IMG/VR virus record: IMGVR_UViG_3300020048_000022
Length of the DNA: 64,000 bases
Reading direction: 5' to 3' (one strand)
DNA from: an uncultured virus (IMG/VR IMGVR_UViG_3300020048_000022)
Taxonomy: Duplodnaviria; Heunggongvirae; Uroviricota; Caudoviricetes
The notes beneath the pieces are model-generated. The model had not been told where the DNA came from, did no database searches, and worked only from the letters and a program-made list of their open reading frames with translations. How positions within the stretch are numbered: the first letter of the stretch is position 1; the number at the start of each line of letters is the position of its first letter. This document shows, piece after piece, positions 15,600-48,765 of the stretch. The translations under genes and the position numbers were made by a program.

Positions 15600-16100
15600 A
15601 GGAGGGCATAGTTTCCTCTAGAAAAAAAAATTTGTGTTTTGGAACATACCCACTTTTTAGGACCCTCCCCCTCCATTGACATAGTACTTATAGAGAGAAG
15701 GGAGTACAGAGGGTATCCTAGATTATCCCTGTGAAGTACTGGGGTCGAATCCCTAGAAACATTGATTTTTGAGGTCAATAAAAATTCGCCAGACCAGGAC
15801 CGGGGGGTGATTTTCCATATAGCCCCCGGGCCATTGAATTTGAGTTTTAGGGGGGGTAAAATGGCCATTTTAGGGGGGTAAAAAGGGGGCTTAGAAAAGG
15901 GCCTAAAACTCCAGTTTTCACTAAAAAATGTGTGTTTTTACGGGGGTACCCCGGGGGATGTAAAATAGAGTGATTTCTCAGGTTTTTGGTGTTTTTTCTC
16001 TTTTTCTGGGGTACCCTCAGGGATCTTATATTGCTTAGTTAGGAAACCTTGGCTCACAAAAAAAGGCCACAGCGGGCTTTAGAGAAATGGGGGGTATAAA
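15600..16100. other. GC-rich non-coding left flank of the array with G-tracts
   Basis: Many G5-G7 runs, palindrome TAAAATGGCCATTTTA, no convincing ORF. Confidence 0.6.
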
Positions 16101-16107
16101 ATCTAGG

Positions 16108-16290
16108 TTATAGTAGCTGCACTTTTAGGCCCTTAAGAATCTCTTTGAGTTGGGGGGTTATTTTGGATGTGCCTTGGACGGTTGGGATAACGGTAGGCCC
16201 CTGGAGGGAGAAGATGTAGTCTGGTCCTTCTAGAATGTCGTGGGCTTCTAGGAGTGTTTTAACTTGCTTTAGTGTGTATTGTTTGTTCAT
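16108..16290 (-). CDS. hypothetical protein, last gene of the minus-strand array
   Basis: Start MNKQY directly after the class-I promoter; terminator at about 16055-16080. Confidence 0.55.
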   Translation of the reverse strand: MNKQYTLKQVKTLLEAHDILEGPDYIFSLQGPTVIPTVQGTSKITPQLKEILKGLKVQLL

Positions 16291-16380
16291 AGAGTAAATA
16301 TAAGGGGTTTTCTTAGAAGAAAAAAATGATTTCTTGGAATAATCGAGTGTATAATACTCTCTTATCTTCTTCTTCATCTT

Positions 16381-16590
16381 TATCTGGGGTACCTCATATA
16401 TAGTGATCTATGGTAACCACTGCTAATACATGCTTTACTTATGGATCCGGGGGTACCTCAGTGTGTTTACCATAGAGCAAGTACATGAAATACATGCTAT
16501 GTTATCCCTATCTGGGGTACCTTCCTTGCTTTACCATAGAGCAGATAATCATTATACATGCTATTACATCTTCATCTGGGGTGCCTTCCT
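16381..16590. repeat. four imperfect direct repeats with exact 64-bp period
   Basis: GGGGT ends at 16390, 16454, 16518 and 16582; shared TTTACCATAGAGCA and ATACATGCT. Confidence 0.85.
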
Positions 16591-16673
16591 TGGTCTTCTT
16601 CTCTTCCTAAGGCTTTGTGCACAAAAAAAGAGGTTGTTAAGACCTCTTCATTTTAGTGATGTGTAATGAGTGT

Positions 16674-16808
16674 TTAGAACTCAAATGATGCTGTACTATG
16701 TACATTACCTGTTATGACTTGTATGAAGGCATAACATAGAGATACAATTGTCATTGACATTAGCACTCCCACCCATATTCCTGCTAATAGATTGATTGTT
16801 TTTTCCAT
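16674..16808 (-). CDS. small membrane protein (44 aa)
   Basis: Hand translation MENTINLLAGIWVGVLMSMTIVSLCYAFIQV...; followed by a terminator. Confidence 0.55.
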   Translation of the reverse strand: MEKTINLLAGIWVGVLMSMTIVSLCYAFIQVITGNVHSTASFEF

Positions 16809-17078
16809 TTTGTTTTATTTAGTTTAATTTAGTTTTGTGAGATTTGTGACCATATTCTTAATAGGTCTGAAAGAAGTAATTGAGACTTTACACTTAACAT
16901 TTGAATCTTTGAATACATGAGATATTGTTTAATTGATTTACATAGCTAATATATGGATTTTTCTACTAAGTAAAAAACGATTTCTTGGAATTATGTGGAA
17001 AAAGATTTAGAATAAGATGTGTTCCTGTGGGGTACCTCAAGAGTGTTACTAGATATATAAATGATCTAACTAATTATT

Positions 17079-17291
17079 ATGTCAGGACACGAAGATGTAT
17101 TCTATGAGATTTACCAGGAGGTTCACTCGAGAGGACAAGAAGAAGTATTCTATAAGCAGCTTGAGAAGATGAAGAGTCAAGATAAGCATAAGTATAAATG
17201 TGTTAAAGACCATTGGGAATATGCTTATGATAAAATCACTGGGGTTCATCAGAGTGCTGAGACTTTATTGAGTAATCAAGATTTAAAATAA
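17079..17291 (+). CDS. hypothetical protein
   Basis: GATATATA at 17052; counter-oriented insert in the array. Confidence 0.65.
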   Translation: MSGHEDVFYEIYQEVHSRGQEEVFYKQLEKMKSQDKHKYKCVKDHWEYAYDKITGVHQSAETLLSNQDLK

Positions 17292-17486: not shown

Positions 17487-17688
17487 AAGAAGAAGACCAA
17501 AGAAAATTTCTTAGTACTATCTCAAACTCCTGGGGTTCCCCACGATGCTTTCTTTGCATTTTAATTTTTTCATATTTTAAAAATCTGGGGGCCTAAATAT
17601 AAGAATTATCATCCTTATAAAAAAATGATTTCTAAGAGATTCCAGCGGGGGTTCCTCCATGGGATTTGATCAGACCAATTTTTTTCCC

Positions 17689-17716
17689 CACAAAAAAAGG
17701 AGTCCGAAGACTCCTC
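17689..17716 (-). terminator. rho-independent terminator (representative of about 30)
   Basis: Minus strand AGGAGTC-TTCG-GACTCCT-TTTTTTGTG; identical hairpin at about 20110-20130. Confidence 0.85.
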
Positions 17717-17741
17717 TTTCACTTTTTAAACTAAACCCGGA

Positions 17742-18077
17742 TTACTCCGCGGTTTGTGCGTTTACCAACTCGTTCGAAGTTGTGTAAAAAGTTCGACGTC
17801 CAGTTCGCTTAACTCTGAAAGTAATTAAATTATTTTCATTTTTAATTTGAGTGAAACTTAGGACAGACCCCGGACTTGCGCAATAGGAATTTTCAATTTC
17901 CATTTTAAGGTTTTTGTATAAACGAACCTTATGTGCGAACTCTTTTTCGAACTTCATTTCACTTAAGAAATCGTCAAATTTTGGCTGAGCCATTTCCACT
18001 TTTTTCTTTGCTGCGTAAGCTTTGTTGTAAGCTGCTTTTTTTGCTTTTTGTTCTGAAGTCATAATTGAGTTTTTCAT
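17742..18077 (-). CDS. basic protein, EQKAKKAAY family paralog 1
   Basis: Lys/Ala helix plus conserved VRLYKNLKM..NSY.ASPGSVLSF...FRVKRTGRRTFYT. Confidence 0.85.
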   Translation of the reverse strand: MKNSIMTSEQKAKKAAYNKAYAAKKKVEMAQPKFDDFLSEMKFEKEFAHKVRLYKNLKMEIENSYCASPGSVLSFTQIKNENNLITFRVKRTGRRTFYTTSNELVNAQTAE

Positions 18078-18323
18078 AATAGATTTTTTTAAGTTTTGTT
18101 TAATTGATTAACATTACAAATATAAGTGGTCTTCTTTGATATAAAAAATGATTCTGGGAATTTCTTGGAAATTTCTAAAAAAATATTTAGTGTGTTCCTT
18201 GTGGTTCCTACCCGATTCTGATCACCGGGGGTTCCTCAAGAAGTCTGATTGGGTTTAGGAAAAAGTTAGGGGCACAAAAAAATCCGAGGGGGACCCGGAT
18301 TTAAAAAAATAAATCTACACAAT

Positions 18324-18630: not shown

Positions 18631-18686
18631 GACTCTACAAATATAGAGAATATTCTATTATATAAAAAATGATTTCTTGGAAAAAA

Positions 18687-18728
18687 CCCTCTCGTACGCA
18701 CGCACGTACGCACGCGTCCCCCGGGAGG
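18687..18728. repeat. alternating purine-pyrimidine element
   Basis: CGTACGCACGCACGTACGCACGCGT (25 nt) identical at 21046-21070; variants at 25093, 29429, 46401, 47665 and 48029. Confidence 0.85.
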
Positions 18729-18848
18729 AGCCATGGTATAATAATGTGAAGAAGAGTGAAGATGTACTGGGGCACCGCAGTGGGTTTACAGTAGACAGGT
18801 TACTGTAAACCTTGGTGCACAAAAAAAGACTCCTAAGAGTCTTTTTCT

Positions 18849-19133
18849 TTATGTTGAGTTTGTGGGCTCTCCTTTATTTCTAGGAGTTGTGATTTGATTC
18901 TTTATAATAGTGGCCCTTGAATTAGGCTCTCCTTTGTTACGCGGAATCTTTCTTTCTTGTATAATAGAAGCCCTTGATGTGGGCTGTCCTCTAGGTAGGT
19001 GAAAGAAATTATTGACTTCTCCTACCTCAGCATAAACTCCCCTTTTGTTTTTAATCGGGTGGTCAATCCCGTATGTCTTTATAATCTCGGGGACCAGGAG
19101 AGCTAAGATGAAAATTAGTATGAGCTTTAGCAT
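18849..19133 (-). CDS. putative exported or membrane-anchored protein with C-terminal peptide repeats
   Basis: Hydrophobic N-terminus; three G(Q/E)P(T/N)S-type repeats. Confidence 0.65.
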   Translation of the reverse strand: MLKLILIFILALLVPEIIKTYGIDHPIKNKRGVYAEVGEVNNFFHLPRGQPTSRASIIQERKIPRNKGEPNSRATIIKNQITTPRNKGEPTNST

Positions 19134-20147
19134 ATTCTTTTTATTAATTGGTTAAGACAAATATAGAAATTTCTACTTGATTAAAAAAATGATTTTTCAT
19201 CTTTTTCACTTGCTTTATCCATAAGGTGCATTGTGTAAAGACCTACGAAGACAGAAGCGATTACGATGTAATCACCTAAGTGATTTCCGAATACCATCAT
19301 TGTTGTTCCGAATACCATTCCTATAAAGAATAGGCACATTAAAATTGAAGTTTTCATATTGAGATTTGTTTAATTGGTTAAGACAAATATATAGAAACTT
19401 CTACATTATAAAAAATGATTCTTGGAATTTTTAAGAAAATGTTATCATGGCTTTACCATGATCCCGTGGGGTTCCTCATAGAGTTTACCATAGAGTAAAC
19501 TTTAAGAGAAACCTGCAACTGGTAAGTCTCTTGATCATTCTGGGGTTCCTCATTGGTTAATCCTAGCTGTCTTACCAGAATATAGCAATTTTTTTTAACT
19601 CCTTGTGATAGGATAAAGAAAGGTTCATCTACCTGGGGCACCTCAAGAATCCTGATCTGCTCTTGGTCAAATTCTTGGTCCACAAAAAAAGAGGACCTAA
19701 GTCCTCTCTCATTTCATTATAACCCCTTATAATGAAAAGCAAAAATTATTCATCTTCAAGAATTTCTTCTTTTTTAAATTCTTGAGATTGATTTAAGATT
19801 TCTTGTGCATCAAGTATTTCATTGATTTCATTTTGGTTTAGACCTAATTCAATTAAGAATTTTAATTTCTTTTTAATTTCTGGGTTCATATCTTATTTGT
19901 TTAATTGATTAACATTACAAATATATGGATTTTTCTACAATATAAAAAACGATTTCCAAGAATTGTTTTAGGTAAGTATCCAGATCCCGCGGGGTTCCCC
20001 AGAGTGAATCATCAGGTTATCATCTGGAATCACCTGGTAAGTATCCAGACCCGCTGCGGTTCCCCAGGAGAATCTCCTTAGCCACATCCAGAATTCTTAG
20101 CCCACAAAAAAAGGAGTCCGAAGACTCCTCTCTGTTTCCTGACCGGT

Positions 20148-20459
20148 TTACTGTGCCGGCGCCAACTCATTTGAGGTGGTGTAGAAAGTTCTGCGACCTG
20201 TGCGCTTAACTCTGAAAGTTGTTAAGTTGTTTTCGTTAGAAATTTTAACGAAACTTAAAACTGAACCTGGACTTGCGTTGTAGGAATTTCCCAACTCCAT
20301 TTTCAGATTTTTGTATAATCTGATTTTGTGGTCGAAAGCCATTTCGAATTTGTCAAGCGCCATCCAATCTGGAGTTTGCACTTTCTCTTTTTTCTTAGCC
20401 GCATACGCTTTGTTGTAAGCTGCCTTTTTTGCTTTTTGTTCTGCTGATAAAGTTTTCAT
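20148..20459 (-). CDS. basic protein, EQKAKKAAY family paralog 2
   Basis: High identity to 17742-18077, including promoter and terminator DNA. Confidence 0.85.
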   Translation of the reverse strand: MKTLSAEQKAKKAAYNKAYAAKKKEKVQTPDWMALDKFEMAFDHKIRLYKNLKMELGNSYNASPGSVLSFVKISNENNLTTFRVKRTGRRTFYTTSNELAPAQ

Positions 20460-20724
20460 AATTTGTTTTTGTTTAATTGATTAACATTACAAATATAAGT
20501 GGTCTTCTTTGATATTAAAAATGATTTCTGGGAATTTCTTGGAAATTTCCACAAGGGTACTGATCCATCCCTCTGGGGTTCCTACTCTGATCCTTACAGC
20601 GGGGGTTCCTCCAGCTGGACGCGCGGACTCGGCGCGGAATCCGATCCGAATCTTTTTAAATAAAAAAAAGACTCCGAAGAGTCTTTCCTTTTACATCTGA
20701 TAAGTGTTAATCAATCAAAAGTGT

Positions 20725-20955
20725 CTATCTAGTGCTCACTTTAATAGTGAATAATTTGTCTTGCATACCTGCTAGGTCAACCATATCTCTGACCTTCTTA
20801 GCAGTTTCCTCGTGGTTATACCCAAACACTTCTATAATGTATTTAGCCTTACCTTCTTTAGTGCCTCCTCTAACAAAGTATTCTCTAGAAGGTTCAGTGG
20901 TTCTTCTCACTCTGTTGTCCTTAGTACTCACATAGAATGTGTCTGTGTTTGCCAT
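20725..20955 (-). CDS. hypothetical protein
   Basis: Own promoter, leader and terminator. Confidence 0.75.
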   Translation of the reverse strand: MANTDTFYVSTKDNRVRRTTEPSREYFVRGGTKEGKAKYIIEVFGYNHEETAKKVRDMVDLAGMQDKLFTIKVSTR

Positions 20956-21143
20956 AATGAAGTTTTAATTGGTTTACTTAGCTAATGTAAAATAAATGCT
21001 TTAAATTAAAAAATGATTTCTGAGATTTTATTGGAAATACCCTCTCGTACGCACGCACGTACGCACGCGTCCCCCGGAGGGGCTCTCGTCATTATAGCCT
21101 TCAGGGTTAGTCCCCTGTGCTTACTTAATGACGAGAGAGTGTG

Positions 21144-21344
21144 TTAATCATCCAGCTCCATCAGAGAGACATCCCAATCTCCGTATCTGTCTCTGAAGGT
21201 TACACCACCGTGAATGTTTGGACCCACTTCGCCTATCCAGTCTTGTATACCCATTCGATCTTCTGGATGCACTTTAGAGTTCCATTCGGATAGGTCCTTT
21301 CTTACTAAGTCCCACCATTCTTGTTTTGAGATTGCTCCTGGCAT
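21144..21344 (-). CDS. hypothetical protein
   Basis: Last of a three-gene unit. Confidence 0.65.
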   Translation of the reverse strand: MPGAISKQEWWDLVRKDLSEWNSKVHPEDRMGIQDWIGEVGPNIHGGVTFRDRYGDWDVSLMELDD

Positions 21345-21349
21345 ATGTT

Positions 21350-21571
21350 TTAGTTTAATTCGATCTTTTCTTTTTTCATTTTCTTACAATGCTCGCACTC
21401 ATAGAATTTTACATATCCCACTTGAACTTCTTGACCATTGCGGAAGGTATTAATTGTTGCGTTTTTAAAAAGAACCCAGTTGTGTTTGCATTGGGGGTTA
21501 ACTGCCTGTCTGATTAGATACCCAATTCCCAATCCGAACACTAAGCAAAAAATATAAACCGCTATTAACAT
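21350..21571 (-). CDS. membrane-anchored protein with C.H.W and CxxC motifs
   Basis: N-terminal TM segment; CKHNW and CEHC. Confidence 0.7.
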   Translation of the reverse strand: MLIAVYIFCLVFGLGIGYLIRQAVNPQCKHNWVLFKNATINTFRNGQEVQVGYVKFYECEHCKKMKKEKIELN

Positions 21572-21576
21572 CTTCT

Positions 21577-21789
21577 TTATTTTTTAGTGGATAACTCTTT
21601 AATCATTTGACATATGCTTTCTTCTAACTTCTCTGGATCTTCTAAAGCTTCTAGCAATCTTCCTTGAATCGAATGCTTAATAACTACCTCCATCTTCTCT
21701 GCATACTCGTAAGACTCTTTAGGTCCATTTCCGCCTCTGCATAAAACCGTGTTCTCTAAAGCTATTTTAATTGTTGCTGATACTGACAT
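21577..21789 (-). CDS. hypothetical protein
   Basis: Class-I promoter at about 21814-21850. Confidence 0.7.
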   Translation of the reverse strand: MSVSATIKIALENTVLCRGGNGPKESYEYAEKMEVVIKHSIQGRLLEALEDPEKLEESICQMIKELSTKK

Positions 21790-21857
21790 TCTTATTTTGT
21801 TAATTGGTTAACTCAAATATATGGAATTTTCTACTTAGAAAAAAATGATTCTTGGAA

Positions 21858-22076
21858 TTATCTTTCAAGTATTACAAATGCTCCGAAGTAGTTATCAAAC
21901 ACTTGAAGTGCGTTCTCATAATCTCCTGACATCATCTCTTTGTGAATCACACTAGCATCTAAGTCTAATTGTCTTGCAAATCTTTTAGCGTATCCCATAA
22001 GGGCAAACACATTACCATCAGGTCCAGTTAAATCGATAACGATTGGTCCTTCTTTAGCTTCTTTCTTTCTTATCAT
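21858..22076 (-). CDS. conserved phage hypothetical protein
   Basis: IDLTGPDGN.FALMG...M.SGDY motif common in phages. Confidence 0.8.
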   Translation of the reverse strand: MIRKKEAKEGPIVIDLTGPDGNVFALMGYAKRFARQLDLDASVIHKEMMSGDYENALQVFDNYFGAFVILER

Positions 22077-22185
22077 TTGGTTTGTTTAATTGATTAACAT
22101 TACAAATATATAGAATTTTCTACAAAGTAAAAAATGATTTCCAAGAATAATAATCATGTCAATATAACATGATTGACATGATACT

Positions 22186-22262
22186 CCTGGGGTTCCCCAA
22201 GAATTCTTGCATGTGCTACCAGAAAAACTTCAGCACACAAAAAAGGAGACATGAAGTCTCCT
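22186..22262. repeat. unit-boundary element: GGGGTTCCCC box, spacer, CACAAAAAA and hairpin (representative)
   Basis: CCTGGGGTTCCCCAAGAATTC(T/C)TGCATGTGCTA(C/T)CAGAAAA near-identical at 22186, 23434 and 25507. Confidence 0.85.
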
Positions 22263-22285
22263 TTAATGATTTTAGCGTTTGTGTT

Positions 22286-22675
22286 TTAGATTTCTATGTG
22301 AGGAGCTTTTGATTTAAGCTCATCAACATAAGAGTTTAACTCTTCTACAGTATTGAAGTGAATCTGTTTAGAAGACTTATCGTTCATGCAGATTGTACAA
22401 TGAGGTTTTTCATAAAGCACATCATCTTCACCGAAGTAATAATACTCACTTTTAAAATCTTTTAATTCACAAACAAATCCCTGACGATCTTCAAAAAGAC
22501 CTGATGTTCTTACCACTGCTACTGGAATGATTTCATACACAGGGAAGATCAAATACTTACGACCAACTTTATGTTTGAAGTTTCTCTCTATTGAAAGAGA
22601 GCATTCAAATCTATGAGGCTCGTGTTTAGGGTGTACATTTACTCTTGTGATTGAATGATTAAATAAAATTGCCAT
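22286..22675 (-). CDS. hypothetical protein
   Basis: Own promoter and terminator. Confidence 0.75.
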   Translation of the reverse strand: MAILFNHSITRVNVHPKHEPHRFECSLSIERNFKHKVGRKYLIFPVYEIIPVAVVRTSGLFEDRQGFVCELKDFKSEYYYFGEDDVLYEKPHCTICMNDKSSKQIHFNTVEELNSYVDELKSKAPHIEI

Positions 22676-22835
22676 ATTGTCTTTGTTTAATTGATTAACT
22701 AAGCAAATATATAGAAACTTCTACATTATAAAAAATGATTCTTGGAAAAATTGGGAAACAAAAAAAAGAGATATGAATCTCTTTTTTAAAGATAAGAAAA
22801 TGCTCTATCTCAAACCCGTGGGGAGCCTCAGGTGA

Positions 22836-23411
22836 TTACTTACTCCCGCTTCCTTTTGGCCCTGATGCGTGTTTATCTACAATTATCTTCTCAACACCGC
22901 GTTTTGTTATATGTGGAAATTGTTTAGGAAATTTTTTGCCGGTTCTTTTAATGAAATATCCAGTTCCATTAATATATTCGGTCAACATATTTCTTAATTT
23001 AACTGCAATTGTTATTGGTTCTTTTGTCTCAATTTTATCTAAATATTTAGTTACTAATTCTGTCCAATCTTTTTTTGTCTTAGGATCCTGTTGGTTAGGT
23101 GCACTAAACAGACCAGCAAATTTATTAAAGATGTTATTCATTCCTTCATCGATATCATCAATTTCGTTATAATCTTCATTAATCTTTGCTTTGTAATCTG
23201 CAATTAAGTATTCTAAATCTTGAATCATATCTTTTAAAGACTTAGGTTTGCTTCCGAAGGTACCTTCTGCAAAGTTTGGTCTAGCAACTGTGTCTTGAAC
23301 TAATACTCTTTCAACATCAGTTTTGAAATCTTTTAACATCATATCTTGTTGTTCTGAAAGATTGTTAGAGTTATCTTCGTTTATGAAGTCTCCGAATTTA
23401 AGTATTTCCAT
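22836..23411 (-). CDS. hypothetical protein, MEILKFGDFINE N-terminus
   Basis: Start reassigned downstream of GATATATA; the ORF-track extension runs through the boundary element. Confidence 0.75.
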   Translation of the reverse strand: MEILKFGDFINEDNSNNLSEQQDMMLKDFKTDVERVLVQDTVARPNFAEGTFGSKPKSLKDMIQDLEYLIADYKAKINEDYNEIDDIDEGMNNIFNKFAGLFSAPNQQDPKTKKDWTELVTKYLDKIETKEPITIAVKLRNMLTEYINGTGYFIKRTGKKFPKQFPHITKRGVEKIIVDKHASGPKGSGSK

Positions 23412-23532
23412 AGTTAATATTTTATGTATATATCCTGGGGTTCCCCAAGAATTCTTGCATGTGCTATCAGAAAACATTAGCACACAAAAAATCCCAAGAT
23501 CTCTCTTGGGATTTTTCATAGTTTAATCTGGA

Positions 23533-23754
23533 TTAGTAAATTTCATGTCCACATCTTAAAGGTGTACCGTCAGAGTTCATGACCTGAATTGTGCCTCTTC
23601 GATGAGGTAGAGTTTTATAAACGAATCCGTTCTCACACTCTATAGAATAGTCAAAGTGCATACCCTCTTCGTAGGGATCTTTTTGACTCTCACAGTAACC
23701 AGCAAGAATGAATACTGCGATTAGTCCAAGAAATAAAATTGCCATGGCCTTCAT
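23533..23754 (-). CDS. putative lipoprotein or exported protein
   Basis: Signal-like N-terminus ending LAGYC; C.NG.VY. Confidence 0.65.
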   Translation of the reverse strand: MKAMAILFLGLIAVFILAGYCESQKDPYEEGMHFDYSIECENGFVYKTLPHRRGTIQVMNSDGTPLRCGHEIY

Positions 23755-23954
23755 TGCTTATCTGATAATTCGTTATTCAAATTTCTTAACTCATTCAATG
23801 AAAGCTCTTGAGCAACAATGATATCTGATAGCCTTTTGTAAGCTGCCACATCGTATGACTCCCTGAGCAAATCGATTGTGGATTCTGTGTTTGCGATTGC
23901 CTGAAGTACTCTCTTACTCACTTGGTCTTTTTCTTCTTCTGTTGCTTTTGCCAT
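23751..23954 (-). CDS. hypothetical coiled-coil protein
   Basis: Class-I promoter upstream. Confidence 0.7.
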   Translation of the reverse strand: MAKATEEEKDQVSKRVLQAIANTESTIDLLRESYDVAAYKRLSDIIVAQELSLNELRNLNNELSDKQ

Positions 23955-24157
23955 TTTCTTTTTCTTTAATTGGTTCTCTCAAATATATGGAATTTTCTAC
24001 AATATAAAAAATGATTCCAAATTATCCTCCGGAGATCTGCTGGAGATCTGCTGGAGATAATCTCTGGGGTTCCCCACGAAGTTCCCACAGCTACGTGGGA
24101 AATCTTAGGTCACAAAAAAGGAGTCCTAAGACTCCTTCCACCCTAAAATAATTCCGG

Positions 24158-24472: not shown

Positions 24473-24696
24473 AATTGGGTTTTTTTAGTTATTGTTTAAT
24501 TGATTAACATTACAAATATAAGTAGAATCTTCTAATATAAAAAACGATTTCTTGGAATTTCTTGGAATTTTTTCCAGGGGTTTAAAGGGGTTTCGTGGGG
24601 GTTCCTCAGGAAACCTGATCCAGACCAGGTGAAAACATAGGGTCACAAAAAAGGACCCGAAGGTCCGTTTCCGTTTCCGCGATGCGATCGCCCTAG

Positions 24697-26938: not shown

Positions 26939-26940
26939 GT

Positions 26941-27649: not shown

Positions 27650-27651
27650 AA

Positions 27652-40023: not shown

Positions 40024-40095
40024 TTGTATTTGTTTAATTGATTTACTTAGCTAATGTAGAATAATCTACTTGATAAAAAAAATGATTTTGAGAAT

Positions 40096-40401: not shown

Positions 40402-40595
40402 ATTGAATTAATTGGTTAAGACAAATATATGGATTTTTCTACAATATAAAAAATGATTTCCAAAAAAATCTAGTCCGCGTTTTTCACCGCAGTGCGCCTG
40501 AGGATCCCCAGGGAATTTGGGATGGCCTAAAAAAGTTTAGGGCAAAAGAAAGGGCTCAGATTTCTCTGAGCCCCGTGTTTTAAACCAATTAAACA

Positions 40596-41015: not shown

Positions 41016-41077
41016 ATCTTTTTTTTAATTGGTTTACTTAGCAAATATAGAAAATTCCATTTGAATAAAAAAATGAT

Positions 41078-41434
41078 TTATTTCCAATCTTCCCATTCGT
41101 CTTCTTCTTCCTCTTCTTCCTCTCCGTCATCATCATCAAAAAGAGGTAGCTCATTTTTCAATCTTTGACCGTTATGTCCTCCGTTTGGATCATCATAGTC
41201 ATAGTCACTGGTTACTTCATATTTATTAATCAATTGGACGTTACACCATCTCTGTGCCCACTCCGCAATATACTCTTCTTTATAGTAATTGATTGCATCC
41301 TCTTCGGTCTCTGAGTCATCCTCACCTAAGTATTCATTAATGTTCTCTTGTGTGATTACGAATTCCTCCATTAGAACTCCACCCGGTAAATACTCCTTCG
41401 GTCCAGTAATAATTGCTTTATATTTTCTTTCCAT
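41078..41434 (-). CDS. acidic hypothetical protein
   Basis: Very Asp/Glu-rich. Confidence 0.7.
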   Translation of the reverse strand: MERKYKAIITGPKEYLPGGVLMEEFVITQENINEYLGEDDSETEEDAINYYKEEYIAEWAQRWCNVQLINKYEVTSDYDYDDPNGGHNGQRLKNELPLFDDDDGEEEEEEEDEWEDWK

Positions 41435-42039: not shown

Positions 42040-42225
42040 GACTGAATCTTTAATTGGTTAAGCTAATATATAGAATCTTCTACAAAATAAAAAATGATTT
42101 CCAAGAAAGTTTTAAGTATCCGGTTTCGGGGGTTCCTCAGGAAGTGTGCGGAAGTGCTACGAAAAAAGCCCAACAAAAAAGCCCGAGATAATTCTCAGGC
42201 TTTTTTTATATAATGATGGAAGTCG

Positions 42226-42920: not shown

Positions 42921-43061
42921 ATGATATTATAGTCGTTTGAACTGGTTTTGTTTCTTATCTCAAATATAAATAGATTTTTCTAATTAAAAAAATGATTTCA
43001 CAATAAACCCCAGGGACCATAGAACAAAGCAGAAATCTATTGTCGCCCGGGGCTTCGTCTA

Positions 43062-44021
43062 TTAGTCCTTCTTCGGACTTCTAAACAGTGTATCAAGTAT
43101 TTCCATTCTTCTTATTAAATCCGAATCGTCCAGCGGAAGTACCTCAGATGAATCTGTCGTTTCATCTACGTCCTCTTGACCCTCCAAATCATAACTCACA
43201 TCGCCAGTTGATGAAAGGTCGAATTGCATTTTTATATTGACCTCTCCCCTTCGGTTCTTAGTGAACATCGCATAGCGTGTCCCGTCCTTATCGAACCTAA
43301 GCTCCATCATACCTGTCGTATTGTGCTTGAGTTTATTTGATCCGAGAAACACTCCCTCTTTTGTGACCTGTTGGATACACAAGAAGCTCGTCCATTTGTT
43401 ACCTTCGTTATTAGCCATGTTGTGGTGACGCATAAGATCGACCAACCATTTTTCCGCCTTCTTACCACTCATCGCACTGGCTTCAGCAACCGTGTCTTGA
43501 ACCTCAACAAATGAATCGATCAGTACCACATCGTAACCTCGATTCAACATAGTCTCAATAATCGATTTGGGATTTTCATCTACGTACTCGCCAAGAAATA
43601 GAATGTCAAGATTTCCAAACTTAGGGTAACGCTTTACGTATCTGTAAAGATCCACTCGGTCCATCTCACCAGATATGAAAAGTACCGAAGCTCCGTTATT
43701 CTGTAAGTCTGCTAGAATATCCATTGACACTGTGCTCTTACCGACACCAGGATCACCGACCAGTATAAAATTGGTGGCTTTAGGAAAACCACCTTCGGTA
43801 CTTAATAATTTATCGATTGGTTTGTGCGTCTTAAGACACTTAAATAAATCAGGGTCGAATGTGAGCTCGTTCATCTTCACACTCTCTGGCTCAACCCCTA
43901 TCGCCTTAGCCGCTTCTGAGATTGTGGACTTAGCTAATCGCTTAGCCTCAAAACTCTTACGAACACCCTCTGCGATACGTGCTTTAGCTTCTTCGGACAT
44001 TGGTGTTCTTGGTGCGTTCAT
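43062..44021 (-). CDS. RadA/Sms-like RecA-family ATPase lacking the Zn-finger and Lon-like domains
   Basis: Walker A GDPGVGKST, LFISGEM, VLIDS, QVTKEG, KNRRG (compare RadA KNRFG). Confidence 0.8.
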   Translation of the reverse strand: MNAPRTPMSEEAKARIAEGVRKSFEAKRLAKSTISEAAKAIGVEPESVKMNELTFDPDLFKCLKTHKPIDKLLSTEGGFPKATNFILVGDPGVGKSTVSMDILADLQNNGASVLFISGEMDRVDLYRYVKRYPKFGNLDILFLGEYVDENPKSIIETMLNRGYDVVLIDSFVEVQDTVAEASAMSGKKAEKWLVDLMRHHNMANNEGNKWTSFLCIQQVTKEGVFLGSNKLKHNTTGMMELRFDKDGTRYAMFTKNRRGEVNIKMQFDLSSTGDVSYDLEGQEDVDETTDSSEVLPLDDSDLIRRMEILDTLFRSPKKD

Positions 44022-44072
44022 TTTATGAGATTTGAGATAAAAATAATCAATCGGTTCTGAAATAAAAAATGA

Positions 44073-44948
44073 TTATTCTTCGTTTACCGCAATGGTGTTC
44101 TTAATGCGCTCTGCAAATTCGTAATTCTCGTCTTCAACCGCCATATGCTCCATCACCTCTAGAACCACTTTCGGAAAATCTCCTAGTACGCCTTTTCCAT
44201 ACACATAGCGTATTGAATTAATCTCGTAATCTTCTAACTCCCCAGCGCTCTCAGCTTCAATCTCGTATAAACGGTCTGTGTACCATTCAGGTGAACCTTG
44301 AATATCTGCAGCTAATTCATAAGCCTCATCCGAACCACCCTCTGGGGTATTCTCTTCGACTAAGTCTCCTGCTTGAAATGTGTACTCGCCAACATTGTGA
44401 CCAAAATCCTCATCCGCATATCTCATACTAATAACTGCTTCCGGATACTTACGGCTTAAAGCCTCTATTACAGGATAAGGTGTACCCCACGCGGTTTCAA
44501 ATGAGATCTCGTTACTTCCTTCATCGGAGTTCTGAGAGTAAGCGTTCCATTTTGTACCCCAGTTGGCAGTGCTCCATGAATACCAATCTTGGTGTCCGTA
44601 TAATCTCACGTTATCTAAAGCCTGCTGAGCCTCTTCTAAATTAGCCGTGCCCTTCTCTAGCATATATGTGATTAATGCTTCCTCAGACTCAAACTCAGTC
44701 GCCCAATTGAACCCCATTATCTTTCTGATATCAGAAGGGTCACCTGCACGGTACTTTAATATAGCGATACCATTACTTGTGGAACTTCCGCTTGTGATAT
44801 TCAATGTGCCAGGACGAGGTAGGATCTTATTAAAATCAATGTGCATCGGCTCTCCGTCATCGTATGAGCCAGCGATTTCTGATTTAATCTTAGCGACTAA
44901 TTCTTCCGGTCCTGTGATTGTTAAAATGTTCGTTACGTGATTTGGCAT
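44073..44948 (-). CDS. YubB/DUF1281-like protein with C-terminal UVR-like motif
   Basis: MPNHV.N.L, WY.W...NWGTKWNA, FETAW..P, LS.KYP; AVEDENYE.A..IKN. Confidence 0.75.
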   Translation of the reverse strand: MPNHVTNILTITGPEELVAKIKSEIAGSYDDGEPMHIDFNKILPRPGTLNITSGSSTSNGIAILKYRAGDPSDIRKIMGFNWATEFESEEALITYMLEKGTANLEEAQQALDNVRLYGHQDWYSWSTANWGTKWNAYSQNSDEGSNEISFETAWGTPYPVIEALSRKYPEAVISMRYADEDFGHNVGEYTFQAGDLVEENTPEGGSDEAYELAADIQGSPEWYTDRLYEIEAESAGELEDYEINSIRYVYGKGVLGDFPKVVLEVMEHMAVEDENYEFAERIKNTIAVNEE

Positions 44949-45008
44949 TTTCTTTTTATTAATTGGTTAATGCAAATATAGAAAAATCTATTTAATTAAA
45001 AAAATGAT

Positions 45009-45533
45009 TTATGACATTTTTGTATCATAGCGATTAATCAATTTCAGAATCGCTTCTTGGTGTTTGTATTCGTACACACTCATAAGGGCTAACCAATAGA
45101 TTTGTTCCACCTTGCCTAATACGATAACATCAGGTGTAGCGAAAGGCATTCGATCTGCTGCCACTTGTTGAAGGGATCTTAATTGACCGATACCAACTTG
45201 AAGTTTCATATGACCTTCAGGATCCACCCCGTCTAATATGCGGCTCATAGCAATTCCTGTTTTCGATTCGACCTCATCGATATCAACTCCGAAGAATTCT
45301 CCTGATCCTAATTGTCCGCCCATATCCTGATACATCTTATTGTGTATCCGAGCCATGTCCTCATACACATTCTGAACATCGTTCCAGAATAAATCGAATC
45401 TCTTCTCACTGCGGTCTAACATATCACCTGCACCATCGAGTATACATGCCATACGCTTACTCTTATCATTACCACGTGCAAGATCATCAACGATACCTCT
45501 TAAAGACGCAATTAAAATAGCCTTTGATTTCAT
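45009..45533 (-). CDS. hypothetical protein
   Basis: Own promoter. Confidence 0.75.
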   Translation of the reverse strand: MKSKAILIASLRGIVDDLARGNDKSKRMACILDGAGDMLDRSEKRFDLFWNDVQNVYEDMARIHNKMYQDMGGQLGSGEFFGVDIDEVESKTGIAMSRILDGVDPEGHMKLQVGIGQLRSLQQVAADRMPFATPDVIVLGKVEQIYWLALMSVYEYKHQEAILKLINRYDTKMS

Positions 45534-45805
45534 AGTTTCCCCCTTTTGTTTATTAATTTATAGATCAAATATAAGGAATTATCTCTGAGAAAAAAAATGA
45601 TTTCTAGAAATTTCTATTAATCCGATGCGGAATCCGAGCGGCTCGCACTACGGAATCCGAGCGGAATCCGACACTCGAATCTCTCTCTGGGGTTCCCCAA
45701 GAATTCTGCGGATGCAATGCAGAGAAAATCCGGATGTGGCTGCGGATTAATCACGGGGGTTCCACAGGCGCCATCGATTCGTATAGAATTTTCTACAAAT
45801 GTCCG

Positions 45806-45890
45806 CACAAAAAAACCGAGACGAATCCCGGTTTTTTTCTAACCAATATAAACCTAAATAGTATGAGCGAAACCTGAGTGGAGTTTCACA
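45806..45890 (-). ncRNA. candidate small regulatory RNA (ORF-less promoter-terminator unit)
   Basis: Promoter variant 45894-45925, 5' hairpin GTGAAAC/GTTTCGC, terminator CCGGGA-TTCG-TCTCGG-T-run, no AUG-initiated ORF. Confidence 0.6.
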
Positions 45891-45946
45891 CCGCAAATAT
45901 AAGCGGTCTTTCACTAATAAAAAAATTTAATTCGGATAAATACACT

Positions 45947-46372
45947 ATGCGCACAATCAAACTATACGAGAATTTCGGACAAGATCGGATCGCCTTCTCA
46001 AATAAAATAGGCAGAGAGAACACACACCTTGACCTCTATGACGAACCAATGGATATGAAATTCGCCACAGTAAGAGATGGTGTTGTTAATTGGGATCTAG
46101 AACTCAGACAGAGAGAGTGGGGATTAGAGCTAGGCGGAACCCCAGCAACTATCACATCTATCAGATTTGATTACGAGGTAGACGACGAAGAGACCGGTGA
46201 TGCTATAGAGAAAGAGTGGGAGATCGGAGAAGGCACATTCTCTAATGAGCAATTCGAGACAGAGATTAACTCATTCCCTCTATACCTAGAAGCTATTGAA
46301 ATCAAAATGAACCACACCAAAGATCCCAAATTCTGGAAGATCAAATTGTATTTAGGTAAGAACGAATACTAA
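45947..46372 (+). CDS. hypothetical protein, MRTIKLYENF N-terminus
   Basis: Start reassigned after GATAAATA. Confidence 0.75.
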   Translation: MRTIKLYENFGQDRIAFSNKIGRENTHLDLYDEPMDMKFATVRDGVVNWDLELRQREWGLELGGTPATITSIRFDYEVDDEETGDAIEKEWEIGEGTFSNEQFETEINSFPLYLEAIEIKMNHTKDPKFWKIKLYLGKNEY

Positions 46373-46504
46373 TCCAGAGAATTTTCTAAACACTATTCCC
46401 TACACACGCACGTGAATACACGCATCCGCGCGGGGTCCCTCCCAGGTCTCCTCCCACAAAAAACCCCAGAGCTAAATCCAGGGTTATTGTAAGAAGCGAT
46501 AAAA

Positions 46505-47167
46505 TTATTTACTCATCTTAACCTCAGTGCCATTAGCAGTCACATTCACAGTGATGTTAACACCGTAGTCCTTAACGATCTGAGCAAGCTGAATCAACTC
46601 GATTGAATTGTTAACCGATGCTGGAGTAGCAACTGGAGCAGCTACGGGAGCAGTGTGTTCTTTCACTTCCTCAACCACATCTTCTATTACCTCTGGAGAT
46701 TCTAGTACATGAGTCATTGGCTTACGTACTCTTTTGATTCCTTTACCAAGAGTGAATCTTGTCTCAGGATCATTAAAGAATCCCTCATCGATCAATTGAC
46801 ACTTACGACAGTAGATAGAAGGAGCAGTGCGTCCTAGAAGCTCAACAGTCTCTTTCACAGTCATCTTACTAAGTACAGCATCTCTTAACATCTCATCTTC
46901 TTCTTGAGTCCATCTCTGATTCGAATTAGGAGTTGCAGAACTCACTGTTGATGTACGTACCTTACGTCCATTAATAGTACTAGGAGTCTTAACCGAACCA
47001 TCAGCTAAGTAACGTGTACCTCTTGGTCTCACTTTGGAACCTAGGATTCTTCGTAGAGTCTCAGGGTTGATTCCGTGCTTACTAGCAACATCTCTTAATG
47101 TTCCGTTGTTGTGCACATAATCTTTTGTTGCTGCAGCCTTGACTGCCTTTGAAATTACTCTTGCCAT
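46505..47167 (-). CDS. DNA-binding protein with HTH and Myb-like domains
   Basis: TLRDVASKHGINPETLRRIL; RWTQEEDEML...LGRT..SI. Confidence 0.7.
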   Translation of the reverse strand: MARVISKAVKAAATKDYVHNNGTLRDVASKHGINPETLRRILGSKVRPRGTRYLADGSVKTPSTINGRKVRTSTVSSATPNSNQRWTQEEDEMLRDAVLSKMTVKETVELLGRTAPSIYCRKCQLIDEGFFNDPETRFTLGKGIKRVRKPMTHVLESPEVIEDVVEEVKEHTAPVAAPVATPASVNNSIELIQLAQIVKDYGVNITVNVTANGTEVKMSK

Positions 47168-47188
47168 TATTTATTTAGATTTAAAAAG

Positions 47189-47572
47189 TTACAGATCTTC
47201 AACAAAGAACATAGCCATAGTGATGCGCTTACCATTAGCTCGTGCTATCTGACGAGCCGCAGATGACATATCCTTAGCTTGCTCTCTTGTGATTGTTTGT
47301 GGTGTATCAACCTGAGTGACACCAGTAGGTATTTTAACCTCTTTACCCTTTGAGTTCTTTATCTTGGGAGACTTTACCTCAACCTTAATCTTCTTAGTCT
47401 TAGTTAATCCCATTTGCGATTTCTGATAGATCACAGCCGCTGGAGTGCGTCCTAGTGCATCAGAGATTTCTTTAATTGCCTTTCCCTCTTTGGTCATGGT
47501 CTTAAGAGACTTCCGATCTTGTTTAGTCCATTTTGACATATTGCGGGACGGGGTCGTAGTTTTGATTTCCAT
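47189..47572 (-). CDS. Myb/GcrA-like HTH protein
   Basis: KWT..D...L......G..IKEISDALGRT..AV......MGL. Confidence 0.7.
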   Translation of the reverse strand: MEIKTTTPSRNMSKWTKQDRKSLKTMTKEGKAIKEISDALGRTPAAVIYQKSQMGLTKTKKIKVEVKSPKIKNSKGKEVKIPTGVTQVDTPQTITREQAKDMSSAARQIARANGKRITMAMFFVEDL

Positions 47573-47649
47573 TTTTATTCAGATTTTATTTATTTGATTT
47601 TATTTGTTATTGCAAATATAGAGACTTCTATTAAAAGAAAAAAAGGATT

Positions 47650-48765
47650 CCCAAAAATAACTCCTACGCATATACGCACACGCATTACGCGTTCATATAA
47701 TAGTGCGCAAAGCCCACACACACTTCCTAGACAATTCCCCGAGTAGACCTCCGGGTTCCCAGGGGTTTCCCCGAGCACTTCTAAGAGTCTCTAAGAGTCT
47801 CTAGGTATAACCCCGTGGAGGTACCTCCGGGATAATTAGTGTCAGGGAGTTTCTAAGAGATCCCTAGATTATCTGGGAACACACCCTGGTGTGTTATCTA
47901 ATGAAATCCCAGAGAATCCCAGATGATACCCCGAATAAGATCCCTAGATTACCTGGGGAACCTCCGAGATTTCTTTTAGTAACTCCAGAGAGAAATAAAA
48001 AATGTATAATCAGAGATTAGATTGGATTCGCACGTGTACGTATACGCAAGGGGCCCAGGGGAGGTCCCGCGGGGACGCTCGTAGAAAGAGGGTTTAACCC
48101 TGCACACTTTGTAGTATATTCTACGGGCCTTGTACACGGGATGGACGGGATGATTACTTGATCTCTATATAGGGGATTACTCTTCTCTTTCTCTCTCTAG
48201 TTATAGTGGGAGTAATAGGCCTTTATATAGTACTAGTCTCCACTTATATAATGTGGGGTTTCTCTTATGTGTTCTGTATAGAGAAGGGGAGTGATTTATG
48301 TGTCTTCACTATGTGTGTACTCTCTAGTATATGTGTCACTCTCTTATGTATAGAAGTGGGGAGATTATTTGTTTTGATTAGTTCTGATAAGGTTCTGTGT
48401 TGAGTGTGTATAATGAGAGTGTGTGAGTTCTCTATATAGTGATTGCTTGTCTTCTCTATGTATGTGTTCATTCTCTCTAGTAGAGTAGTGGTGTTATGTT
48501 TATTAAAGAGCGAGGGCGTGTTTGGGGATTTTTTGGTGTTTTGTCCCCCCTCCGAAAGGGTAGAAAATTCTTTGGTTTAAGCGAGTGTTTTCCGAGTGTT
48601 TTCTCTGCGTTAAATAGAGAATTTTCTATTCCGCGCTTTATGACTATTTAGGTATAGATTTCGGGGCGAACTAGATATTTCTTATAAATGAGGCGAGAAA
48701 TCGGGGCAAAACGGGGCAAGTTTATAGGTGTCCGCCTCTGGGTAATGAGGCGATGTGAATAACGA
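47650..48765. other. about 1.1-kb non-coding divergent region, right flank of the array
   Basis: Gene-strand switch; short repeats CTAAGAGTCT x2, GATCCCTAGATTA x2, TCGGGGC x2; G+T-rich + strand over 48200-48620. Confidence 0.65.

Follow-up and report, generated by a model that had tools for sequence, protein, structure and literature searches.

The DNA considered here is a 64,000-nucleotide (nt) stretch, hereafter the window, from an uncultured virus of the class Caudoviricetes (IMG/VR record IMGVR_UViG_3300020048_000022), and the subject of this report is the array of about 60 small open reading frames (ORFs) that runs along its minus strand between 15,900 and 47,650. The array was delimited by the ORF list, by the counts of promoters and terminators, and by the presence of a similar cluster in relatives, and its genes fall into about 41 units, each headed by a promoter. 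A sequence-only reading of this DNA had described some 40 self-contained expression units with stereotyped boundaries and had likened them to the PeSL cassettes (early promoters combined with stem-loop terminators) of T4-type phages. The whole design is common to four large IMG/VR phage contigs and to several contigs from lake metagenomes; these and further sequences are cited below by their working numbers (G001, L031, and so on) where they must be told apart.

Layout and gene content of the array

Read on the gene strand, a complete border between two units opens with the stop codon of a gene, followed by a GC-rich hairpin, a T-run ending in GTG, a box A of the form N-GCTAAGGTTTT, about 22 variable bases, and the GC-rich word CT-G[GA]GGAACCCC-[AC]G. 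A variable spacer then leads to the promoter, (TTCCAAGA)AATCATTTTTT, 18 bases, and the −7 box TATATTTG, behind which come a few bases, the leader element TAAYCAATTAAAC, 6–10 A-rich bases, and an ATG. This stereotyped layout is incomplete in some units.

Among the small window products, a Pfam scan of 46 left most without a match, and an annotated PHROG is lacking for most of 61, so that the role in host takeover suggested by the sequence-only reading is conjectural. The ORFs were called alike in all sequences and grouped by BLASTP; reciprocal best hits exist for 36 of the 63 array genes in G001 and for 34 of the 63 in G002. The genes and units to which the text returns are the following, all on the minus strand:

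15,900–47,650, minus strand: whole putative early-gene cassette array
46,505–47,572, minus strand: two helix-turn-helix, regulator-like genes at the array head (47,189–47,572 and 46,505–47,167), kept in G001, G002, G004, and G005
43,062–44,021, minus strand: RadA/Sms-like ATPase of the RecA superfamily, resembling RadA/Sms and RecA cores
39,685–40,023, minus strand: fourth F2 paralog, its order relative to its neighbor swapped in G001
38,556–39,596, minus strand: AAA_5/MoxR-like ATPase, the best conserved gene, which served to find relatives
35,272–38,448, minus strand: two VWA/CobT-like paralog units, each with its own promoter, with an identical terminator
24,064–24,571, minus strand: duplicated whole unit, copy 3 (517 nt aligned with copy 2 at 76% identity)
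20,101–20,614, minus strand: duplicated whole unit, copy 2
17,687–18,240, minus strand: duplicated whole unit, copy 1 (GC word, promoter, leader, F2 gene, terminator)

That whole units are duplicated together with their signals, as the sequence-only reading had proposed, is borne out by the alignments. The stretches 18,240–17,687 and 20,614–20,101 are 74% identical over 557 nt; the aligned part opens with the GC word, includes promoter, leader, gene, and hairpin, and closes with TTTTTTGTG. A partial fourth copy lies at 40,105–39,942. The two VWA units are likewise duplicates: their promoters are similar, their terminator hairpins are identical, and part of the one gene is 79% alike to part of the other. 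Within the VWA genes, 36,170–36,343 and 37,856–38,026 form a low-complexity tract of 6–18-nt repeats, which is CT-rich on the plus strand and therefore encodes acidic, glycine-rich residues. The F2 family, to which the genes of the duplicated units belong, comprises basic proteins of about 105 amino acids with a conserved N-terminal EQKAKKAAYNKAY and C-terminal RTGRRTFYTTSNEL; it has four members in the window (17,742–18,077; 20,148–20,459; 24,158–24,472; 39,685–40,023) and three to five in relatives, and gave no Pfam or PHROG match.

The repeated promoter

Promoters were located with the pattern AATCRTTTTT-N19-TANNTTWR, whose expected frequency was taken from 100 shuffles. The window holds 49 matches, against 0.01 expected, with 48 on the minus strand and 40 between 16,295 and 45,602. 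The minus strand of 16.0–47.65 kb thus carries 40 strict copies and one variant, in agreement with the earlier estimate of about 40 units with a fixed-spacing promoter of their own. They are listed here in the direction of the genes; all but the first match the strict pattern.

47,613–47,649, minus strand: variant promoter (AATCCTTTTT-N19-TATATTTG), starting with AATCC, ahead of the first array gene; recognized by eye from repeat families D1, D5, and D6, and missed by the strict pattern
45,566–45,602, minus strand: promoter
44,973–45,009, minus strand: promoter
44,038–44,074, minus strand: promoter with a weak −7 box, TATTTTTA
42,961–42,997, minus strand: promoter
42,063–42,099, minus strand: promoter
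41,042–41,078, minus strand: promoter
40,422–40,458, minus strand: promoter
40,051–40,087, minus strand: promoter, 90% identical over 49 nt to the one at 39,662; the pair flanks the F2 gene 39,685–40,023
39,626–39,662, minus strand: promoter of the AAA (MoxR-like) gene
38,473–38,509, minus strand: promoter of VWA gene 1
36,803–36,839, minus strand: promoter of VWA gene 2
35,085–35,121, minus strand: promoter
34,466–34,502, minus strand: promoter with a second AATCGTTTTT box 33 nt upstream
32,315–32,351, minus strand: promoter
31,864–31,900, minus strand: promoter
31,470–31,506, minus strand: promoter
30,866–30,902, minus strand: promoter
29,977–30,013, minus strand: promoter
29,377–29,413, minus strand: promoter
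28,854–28,890, minus strand: promoter
28,117–28,153, minus strand: promoter, site of a 393-bp insert in L031
26,451–26,487, minus strand: promoter
26,200–26,236, minus strand: promoter
25,446–25,482, minus strand: promoter; the gene behind it is replaced in L031 from −7 box to stop codon
25,039–25,075, minus strand: promoter
24,513–24,549, minus strand: promoter of the F2 paralog 24,158–24,472
23,980–24,016, minus strand: promoter; L034 has an extra 142-bp ORF between its promoter-leader and a second leader
22,704–22,740, minus strand: promoter
22,103–22,139, minus strand: promoter
21,814–21,850, minus strand: promoter, within 21,337–21,859 (promoter and two genes), skipped by lake contigs
20,982–21,018, minus strand: promoter, within 20,727–21,171 (promoter and gene), replaced in lake contigs of one run
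20,490–20,526, minus strand: promoter of the F2 paralog 20,148–20,459
19,918–19,954, minus strand: promoter
19,384–19,420, minus strand: promoter
19,158–19,194, minus strand: promoter
18,638–18,674, minus strand: promoter
18,117–18,153, minus strand: promoter of the F2 paralog 17,742–18,077
17,594–17,630, minus strand: promoter
16,946–16,982, minus strand: promoter
16,295–16,331, minus strand: promoter of the last unit

The −7 box of the 40 strict array promoters reads TATATTTG in 25 cases, TATATTAG in 7, TATATTTA in 4, TACATTAG in 2, and TACATTTA and TATTTTTA in one each, and it mostly stands 19–30 nt from the ATG. It fits the consensus TANNTTTG/TAHHTTTG that PMC6847099 gives for the −7 element of Bacteroidota; promoters of that phylum have in addition a −33 element, weak and rich in T, some 19 nt farther upstream. 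A generic scan for sigma-70-type promoters found no excess (56 against 67 ± 9 and 30 against 28 ± 7 expected).

Two further observations concern these promoters. A dyad TAGA-N3-7-TCTA overlaps the −7 box in 19 of the 40 and occurs in relatives as well, where as here it may be an operator for a dimeric regulator. Outside the array, 60,890–61,060 and 62,918–63,060 are nearly identical modules of ~130 nt, in each of which a pair of tandem promoters is spaced by about 94 nt; the modules precede the minus-strand genes 60,427–60,864 and 62,416–62,880, moron-like among plus-strand genes.

Leaders and terminators

The leader core A[AT]YCAATTA has 30 copies on the gene strand and 5 on the opposite one, and 27 lie downstream of a promoter; a stricter form of the pattern is present at 19 of the 40 array promoters. 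The sequence-only reading had stated that most units share a leader: the leader is indeed recurrent, but its share is really about half to two thirds. A Shine-Dalgarno-like tetramer was seen in 1 of 39 leaders, and Bacteroidota leaders are described in PMC6847099 as A-rich and without Shine-Dalgarno sequences.

The shared terminator ending that had been noticed earlier is well founded, with 23 copies of TTTTTTGTG against 1.6 expected, 22 on the minus strand, and 21 of these in the array. A generic terminator scan gave 33 sites in 16–36 kb, where 11.5 ± 3.7 are expected, and 12 sites in 36–48 kb, where 8.0 ± 2.9 are expected. The hairpin with its T-run stands upstream of the promoter; the two are adjacent in a few units (38,519–38,546, and 63,058 outside the array), and in 15 composite borders they are separated by about 70–190 nt of GC-rich spacer. 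Judged by their sequence, these elements presumably work as promoters and terminators, and presumably do so early in infection. Terminators with the shared ending outside the 15 composite borders are:

46,455–46,490, minus strand: ending TTTTTTGTG, then an alternating purine-pyrimidine GC element
45,806–45,840, minus strand: ending TTTTTTGTG, with GGAACCCC 50 nt behind and a full word at 45,698
29,471–29,505, minus strand: ending TTTTTTGTG, then an alternating GC element
18,818–18,850, minus strand: ending TTTTTTGTG, then a variant word and an alternating GC element
16,620–16,650, minus strand: ending TTTTTTGTG, then four degenerate copies of GGTACCCCAGAT
16,055–16,090, minus strand: ending TTTTTTGTG at the array end, with words at about 16,015 and 15,952

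Source phage, host, and relatives

The carrier of the array is an uncultured freshwater jumbo phage, which follows from the size of its IMG/VR relatives (contigs of 130–248 kb, with 71–78% identity in the two best conserved proteins) and from the content of lake water, as public lake-water metagenomes of 2018–2025 contain 65–98% of the sequence words sampled from 20–30 kb of the window. A nucleotide search with 24 kb of the array against 50,697 phage records gave zero matches, and protein searches of deposited phages gave distant matches only, the nearest being to uncultured phages; the 714-amino-acid product of 54,565–56,709 had no match in a protein search. No T4 core genes were seen within the 64-kb window, a tRNA scan of it found none, and Rfam at gathering scores reported no family in it.

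The promoter pattern occurs on one strand, with 37, 42, and 26 copies in G001, G002, and G003, never matches backwards, and is mostly gathered within one cluster of about 30–37 kb in each. The more distant G004 has the promoter variant AAACATTTTTT-N18-TACATTAG, with leader and terminator-word border unchanged. Closer relatives were found by a metagenome scan with one array protein: L031, L033, and L034 mostly share 80–100% protein identity with the window, and L035 and L036 are close to G001.

The host is probably a member of the Bacteroidota, as suggested by the fit of the −7 box to the consensus, by the A-rich leaders without Shine-Dalgarno sequences, and by the names attached to promoter-pattern matches. 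In a collection of species genomes, Bacteroidota names stand on 42 of 80 among the matches listed, mostly with single matches, and we take these names as a weak hint. Against this assignment, the T-rich upstream box is AATCATTTTTT and differs from the published −33 TTTG. Two short contigs from a genome bin labeled Chlamydiales (L190–L195) carry 3 and 4 copies of the pattern within 5–6 kb and are probably contigs of this phage clade misplaced in that bin. Cultured Flavobacterium jumbo phages with sigma factors have been reported in a paper that does not mention promoters (PMC13573597).

Composite borders and the GC-rich word

In fifteen places hairpin, T-run, box A, and word stand together as a composite border:

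36,878–36,960, minus strand: hairpin, T-run, GTG, box A, about 22 variable nt, word GGGGAACCCC
35,170–35,253, minus strand: word GGGGAACCTC, hairpin the same as at 36,960
31,924–32,005, minus strand: composite border
30,926–31,008, minus strand: composite border
28,933–29,015, minus strand: composite border
28,539–28,618, minus strand: directly ahead of gene 28,155–28,529, which has no canonical promoter; border and gene lie elsewhere in L033
25,506–25,587, minus strand: one of three near-identical borders
24,594–24,675, minus strand: word GAGGAACCCC
24,062–24,142, minus strand: composite border
23,433–23,514, minus strand: near-identical to 25,506, followed by gene 22,836–23,411 without canonical promoter
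22,185–22,267, minus strand: of the family of 23,433 and 25,506
20,052–20,134, minus strand: word GGGGAACCGC, second word at 20,000
19,631–19,712, minus strand: word GAGGTGCCCC, further words at 19,551 and 19,477
18,224–18,304, minus strand: composite border
17,644–17,720, minus strand: composite border with a short spacer of 39 nt

The word G[GA]GGAACCCC has 19 minus-strand and 2 plus-strand copies, none of them outside 17.5–45.7 kb of the window. Its position was measured with a looser pattern that allows variant letters and with a distance filter of 30–60 nt in the window and 30–52 nt in four genomes. It lies behind TTTTTGTG at 15 of 22 window sites, mostly at 43–45 nt, and at 58 of 82 sites of the window and three relatives, mostly at 44 nt, whereas the distance from the word to the downstream promoter varies from 27 to 96 nt. 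Because its distance is fixed upstream and variable downstream, the word belongs to the terminator and not to the promoter.

Among 2.9 million viral contigs the composite TTTTTGTG-N30-40-GRGGAACCCC has 55 matches, 34 of them in the four relatives. The pattern CTGRGGAACCCC has 34 matches in 775 kb of relatives, every one of them inside a promoter cluster or at its margin. The word is confined to the early arrays of this phage clade, and since it is absent outside them it is not a general middle or late promoter.

The stretch ahead of the word has no conserved fold. Over 70 aligned border elements RNAalifold found two invariant G-C pairs, inside the word, and no covariation; compared with shuffles, the stretch from GTG to the word has a mean z of −0.15 in the sense and −0.19 in the antisense direction, neither significant, with 1% below −2. 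Several other notions were discarded as well. The word is not a perfect palindrome, its middle AA being on the gene strand in 19 copies and on the other strand in 2; the subtypes GGGG...AG and GAGG...CG, compared by eye, do not compensate as GRGG/CCCC pairing would have them do; and a second conserved hairpin between terminator and word, suspected by eye, was rejected by RNAalifold and shuffle folding. The idea that the word is itself a sigma-70 or Bacteroidota-type promoter was rejected too, as no −10 or −7 box in fixed register was visible by eye.

The earlier observation that certain boundaries are near-identical although they flank unrelated genes holds: 23,433–23,514 and 25,506–25,587 agree at 91% over 82 nt between unrelated genes, and 22,187–22,247 shares 75–79% identity over 61 nt with the boundaries at 23,433 and 25,506. 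Compared by eye, 22,185–22,238, 23,433–23,485, and 25,506–25,558 and their counterparts in L031, L033, and L034 have mosaic differences in common, and the L031 counterpart of the 25,506 border is one base off the window's 23,433 border. This mosaic suggests gene conversion between border copies.

On the minus strand, promoters are in five places closely preceded by another GC-rich spacer element, roughly GGGGGAC-(GCGTRCGTAC)n-GAGAGGG (18,690–18,735; 21,040–21,085; 25,085–25,135; 29,420–29,470; 46,390–46,445). Purines and pyrimidines alternate strictly in it for up to 23 bases, and elements like it are present in G001, G002, G003, and G004. Alternating purine-pyrimidine runs are prone to adopt left-handed (Z) DNA.

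With regard to function, the word is most likely the docking site of a clade-specific factor that would act on transcription at unit borders. As a tentative extension, possible but on balance doubtful, box A and the word might together be the address of one phage-encoded factor, such as a helix-turn-helix protein of the array head or a phage sigma factor, that switches the whole block. A related proposal, compatible with PeSL-like shuffling and in our estimate rather unlikely, makes box A and the word a second promoter for a phage sigma factor, so that terminator, middle promoter, and early promoter would stand in tandem. The relatives do encode sigma-70-family factors (three in G001, one in G002, one in G004), and the one inside the G001 array (L027:9076–9921) has regions 1.2, 2, 3, and 4; these factors are 281–299 amino acids long, the others lying near 148.9 and 172.7 kb of G001, 216.8 kb of G002, and 13.7 kb of G004. 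Box A stands about 33 nt from the word, roughly as a −35 element does from a start site, and 18 of 72 terminator-word borders precede a gene without a canonical early promoter (5 of them in G004, whose variant is missed by the pattern), among them 28,155–28,529 and F3 copies in G001, G003, and L036; by reading, 22,836–23,411 has none either. Set against these points, inspection by eye showed no AT-rich −10-like or TANNTTTG-like box at a constant distance ahead of the word; elsewhere in the window and in the 775 kb of relatives, where middle or late genes should lie, the word does not occur; its distance is fixed to the terminator upstream; and no sigma gene was found in the 64-kb window.

The F3 family just mentioned comprises proteins of 200–290 amino acids with three to six copies each in G001, G003, and L036 (L008:6169–6978, L008:12860–13576, L024:2161–2952, and L024:14203–14883, with more in G001 and L036) and none in the window or G002. 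The copies examined at borders lie downstream of a terminator-word border and have no early promoter. Homing endonucleases were considered for F3 and rejected, as no such Pfam domain was found, just weak leucine-rich-repeat matches.

Gene order among relatives

Gene order in the array was compared with that of two relatives as follows:

Window and G001 (63 and 70 array genes): 36 reciprocal best hits, orientation conserved in all 36, 19 of 35 adjacencies preserved, 56% mean amino acid identity
Window and G002: 34 reciprocal best hits, orientation conserved in all 34, 10 of 33 adjacencies preserved, 58% mean amino acid identity

The distal half of the array is thoroughly permuted; the order F5-F16-F36-F27 of the window, for instance, is F27-F36-F16-F5 in G001 with no gene inverted. 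The ATPase and VWA genes run AAA-VWA-VWA in the window, VWA-AAA-VWA in G002, and AAA-VWA in G003. Closer to the window, L033 has the border and gene of 28,315–28,598 (94% identical) downstream of the 26,176 unit and not upstream of it. Lake contigs of four runs on 16–36 kb also skip whole genes or units, passing from 21,336 to 21,860 (two runs), from 27,641 to 27,923 (four runs), from 22,832 to 23,413 (one run), and from 20,726 to 21,172 (one run). Three other joints (20,133 to 35,834, 25,130 to 29,958, and 27,187 to 28,835) were not used, having short sides or unknown letters between.

Rearrangement junctions and their explanation

Junctions were collected from six pairs by chained BLASTN (L031, L033, L034, and L038 against the window, G003 against G002, and L036 against G001), with every gap of at least 100 nt listed; L035, which repeats L036, and L032, which is collinear, were left out. 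A side counts as near a signal when it is at most 40 nt from a promoter, TTTTTGTG, or the word in at least one of the two genomes. Among the 37 junctions, one or more sides are near a signal in 30, and both sides in 21. With each genome counted separately, 86 of 148 breakpoint coordinates are near a signal, the nearest being a promoter for 66, the TTTTTGTG T-run for 11, and the word for 9; the corresponding background is 250 of 536 gene starts and ends, and 20–24% of random positions. Relatives thus differ by gain, loss, and reordering at the repeats, as the sequence-only reading had anticipated, and the contrary pattern that it had named, a conserved order with breakpoints away from the repeats, was not found, because only some of the adjacencies are kept and most junctions lie near signals.

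At 16 of the 37 junctions the aligned sides overlap by 8–158 nt, which means that the inserted piece is flanked by a direct repeat, and when the rows are read by eye 12 of the 16 overlaps fall in a promoter, leader, or word. The recent 393-bp insert of L031 is the clearest case, because its flanking promoters are 96% identical over 49 nt, variable spacer and upstream flank included, whereas promoter pairs average 64–68% identity, and both differ from the single promoter of the window at 28,117–28,153. Such an arrangement would be expected if a circle with one promoter had been integrated through a single crossover. Among 205 adjacent promoter pairs, 6 are at least 90% identical, where about 2 are expected, the 99th percentile of all pairs being 0.86–0.94 (0.94 in G004/L001).

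We consider it probable, though well short of assured, that the array is an early, fast-evolving accessory region whose units have been shuffled in a PeSL-like manner by recombination between their repeated modules. About 60 small genes would be expressed from about 41 copies of one strong promoter-leader module, consisting of AATCATTTTTT, 18 nt, a Bacteroidota-type −7 box TATATTTG, and an A-rich leader without Shine-Dalgarno sequence, often with TAAYCAATTA, and many units would be closed by an intrinsic terminator ending in TTTTTTGTG. Modules of roughly 75 to 200 nt follow one another along the array, all facing the same way, and this would allow general homologous recombination to delete, duplicate, insert, and move whole units, each of which would keep its own signals and its orientation; no dedicated recombinase would be needed. 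The word, written in full as GTG-N-GCTAAGGTTTT, about 22 nt, CT-G[GA]GGAACCCC, would be a separate feature and not the crossover site.

As for the RadA-like ATPase, in which the earlier reading had seen the only visible recombinase, the gene is real and resembles RadA/Sms, but the shuffling does not require it: it is present in G001, G004, and G005 and absent at that place in G002 and G003, which show the same kind of insertions and deletions (indels). The RecA Pfam model gave one sub-threshold match in the relatives, in G004 only.

Several observations weigh against recombination between modules as the cause. Breakpoints are near a signal only modestly more often than gene ends are (58% against 47%), and the nominal p of 0.003 for this difference is an overstatement, because each event is counted in two genomes; for 7 of the 37 events, both sides lack a nearby signal. 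An alignment will by its nature continue into a conserved promoter and end where the conservation ends, and a cassette with a promoter of its own looks promoter-flanked by whatever route it came in, so that junctions at promoters are to some extent a consequence of the design. Four or more of the overlaps fall at ordinary gene starts within operons, as at the deletion of 27,652–27,930, and adjacent promoter pairs at the 95th similarity percentile number 16 of 205, against about 10 expected. In the head-side half of the array (47.6–32 kb), the gene order largely follows that of G001, indels and one swap being the exceptions, so that the shuffling is concentrated in the distal half. Finally, the joint that goes back from 24,399 to 20,387, found in three of the four runs and in contigs only, lies between two F2 paralogs and could equally come from a circle, a tandem duplication, or a hybrid paralog gene.

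Another explanation, which we regard as unlikely, is that the repeats are dense regulatory punctuation: illegitimate or microhomology recombination would occur anywhere, selection would keep the intergenic events, and the signals would be mechanically passive. The small excess at signals and the events with neither side near one are what it would lead one to expect, and so are the clean single-gene indels at operon start codons, with overlaps of 10–28 nt and no promoter (27,923/27,653 and 27,412/26,972), and the first indel between G003 and G002, which lies at a bare leader. It accounts poorly for the overlaps, 12 of which fall in signals, for an L031 insert set between promoters far more alike than the average pair, and for the gene-conversion-like mosaic of the 22,185, 23,433, and 25,506 borders and their L031, L033, and L034 orthologues.

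The GC-rich boundary had also been suspected to be the shuffling device itself, and this part of the earlier view found no support: with 9 of the 86 motif-near breakpoints nearest to it, and no conserved fold ahead of it, the word is not the main crossover site. The stronger version, that the word or the terminator-word module is a site-specific recombination site of attC or shufflon type served by an unrecognized recombinase, appears very improbable to us. The word is oriented, of fixed position, and located at unit borders; spacers with two to four tandem words (20,000–20,065; 19,477–19,640; 16,395–16,600) could be scars; one L036 insertion has a 23-nt repeat, located at the word, on both its flanks, and a further one starts 4 nt behind a word; and the stretch common to the window and L033 at the relocated unit 28,315–28,598 starts 4 nt before its TTTTTGTG. 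On the other side, the motif-near breakpoints are mostly nearest a promoter, the terminator-word stretch lacks conserved pairing, whereas attC sites are defined by structure, and no enzyme came to light. Phage_integrase, the tyrosine recombinase family and the sole recombinase family searched in the relatives, was absent from all five of them, and a Pfam scan of 102 window ORFs, which also covered serine recombinases and transposases, found no recombinase or transposase catalytic domain.

Other features of the window

Between the minus-strand array and the plus-strand genes, 47,650–48,776 is about 1.1 kb without a convincing ORF, rich in short odd repeats (CTCTATATAG, GTGTGT, TCTCTAGT) and with two variant GC words; it could be an origin or another control region. 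On its far side, 48,777–50,444 holds a tandem family of proteins of about 125–170 amino acids, with four copies in the window, nine in G001 (contig about 77.2–81.4 kb), and five in G002. At the other end, within 27–4,666, NADAR-domain genes lie at 27–533 and 2,677–3,231, 1,008–1,349 is a homologue of the integron cassette protein VCH_CASS14, and the 478-amino-acid product of 3,230–4,666 has a weak match to the RAMP superfamily.

Comparison with known systems

PeSLs are composite sigma-70 early promoters with stem-loop terminators, present in about 50 copies per genome, in hyperplastic regions and before orphan genes (PMC2839356, PMC4122927). In these sources they are described from the T4-type phages RB49/phi1, T4/PST, and KVP40/nt-1 (Arbiol et al. 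2010, PMC2839356; Comeau et al. 2014, PMC4122927), stand next to 10 of 14 differential genes between RB49 and phi1 (PMC2839356), and were shown by experiment to form mini-circles (PMC2839356, PMC4122927). The analogy drawn by the sequence-only reading is apt as regards repetition, hyperplastic location, and association with indels. Both systems have dozens of copies of a host-type promoter and a terminator in one orientation, in a region of small genes without known family, where relatives differ by insertion, deletion, and replacement beside the repeats, and for both repeat-repeat recombination is proposed as the cause, with no need of a dedicated enzyme.

The differences concern the parts. 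The promoter is here of the Bacteroidota −33/−7 kind instead of sigma-70 −35/−10, and the leader lacks a Shine-Dalgarno sequence and has a conserved word of its own. The hairpin lies upstream of the promoter, about 70–190 nt away in composite borders, whereas in PeSLs of ~100 bp it is inside or overlapping; the borders are much longer and hold, in addition, the word, which is oriented, peculiar to the clade, and set at a constant distance downstream of the terminator. The window shows no T4 core genes, and its phage has no close cultured relative.

Integrons and their attC sites offer a second comparison, sharing with the array a same-orientation series of small unknown genes, a repeated 3′ element, and a content that differs among relatives. 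Integron cassettes, however, mostly lack promoters, while in this array a promoter belongs to every unit; the 3′ element of the array consists of a sequence word and shows no conserved fold; and an integrase was not found by Pfam in five relatives or in 102 window ORFs. In T4, tandem early and middle promoters stack several signal classes before early-region genes. Signals are stacked in the array too, and relatives of this phage carry their own sigma factors, but the word here has no −10 element in register and is tied to the upstream terminator.

In the literature on PeSL since 2015 and on promoters of freshwater Flavobacterium jumbo phages, we found no such arrays described in Bacteroidota phages. 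In our reading the array would be a Bacteroidota-style variant of the published PeSL cassettes.

Significance

If this reading is right, the PeSL idea would extend from T4-like phages of Proteobacteria to large freshwater phages with a different promoter and translation grammar. The strong promoters and terminators of such a phage would double as crossover points, and its accessory genes would be mobile as ready-to-express units. The window, the four related contigs, and several metagenome contigs also amount to a large natural set of promoter, leader, and terminator parts for Bacteroidota.

For the terminator-locked word we found no published explanation. If it is the address of a single factor, that factor would block or license read-through at every border, or start a second wave of transcription, and the phage would have a terminator-coupled global control system without a described counterpart in phages. 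As a control site, the word would provide a handle on the timing of early genes in such phages.

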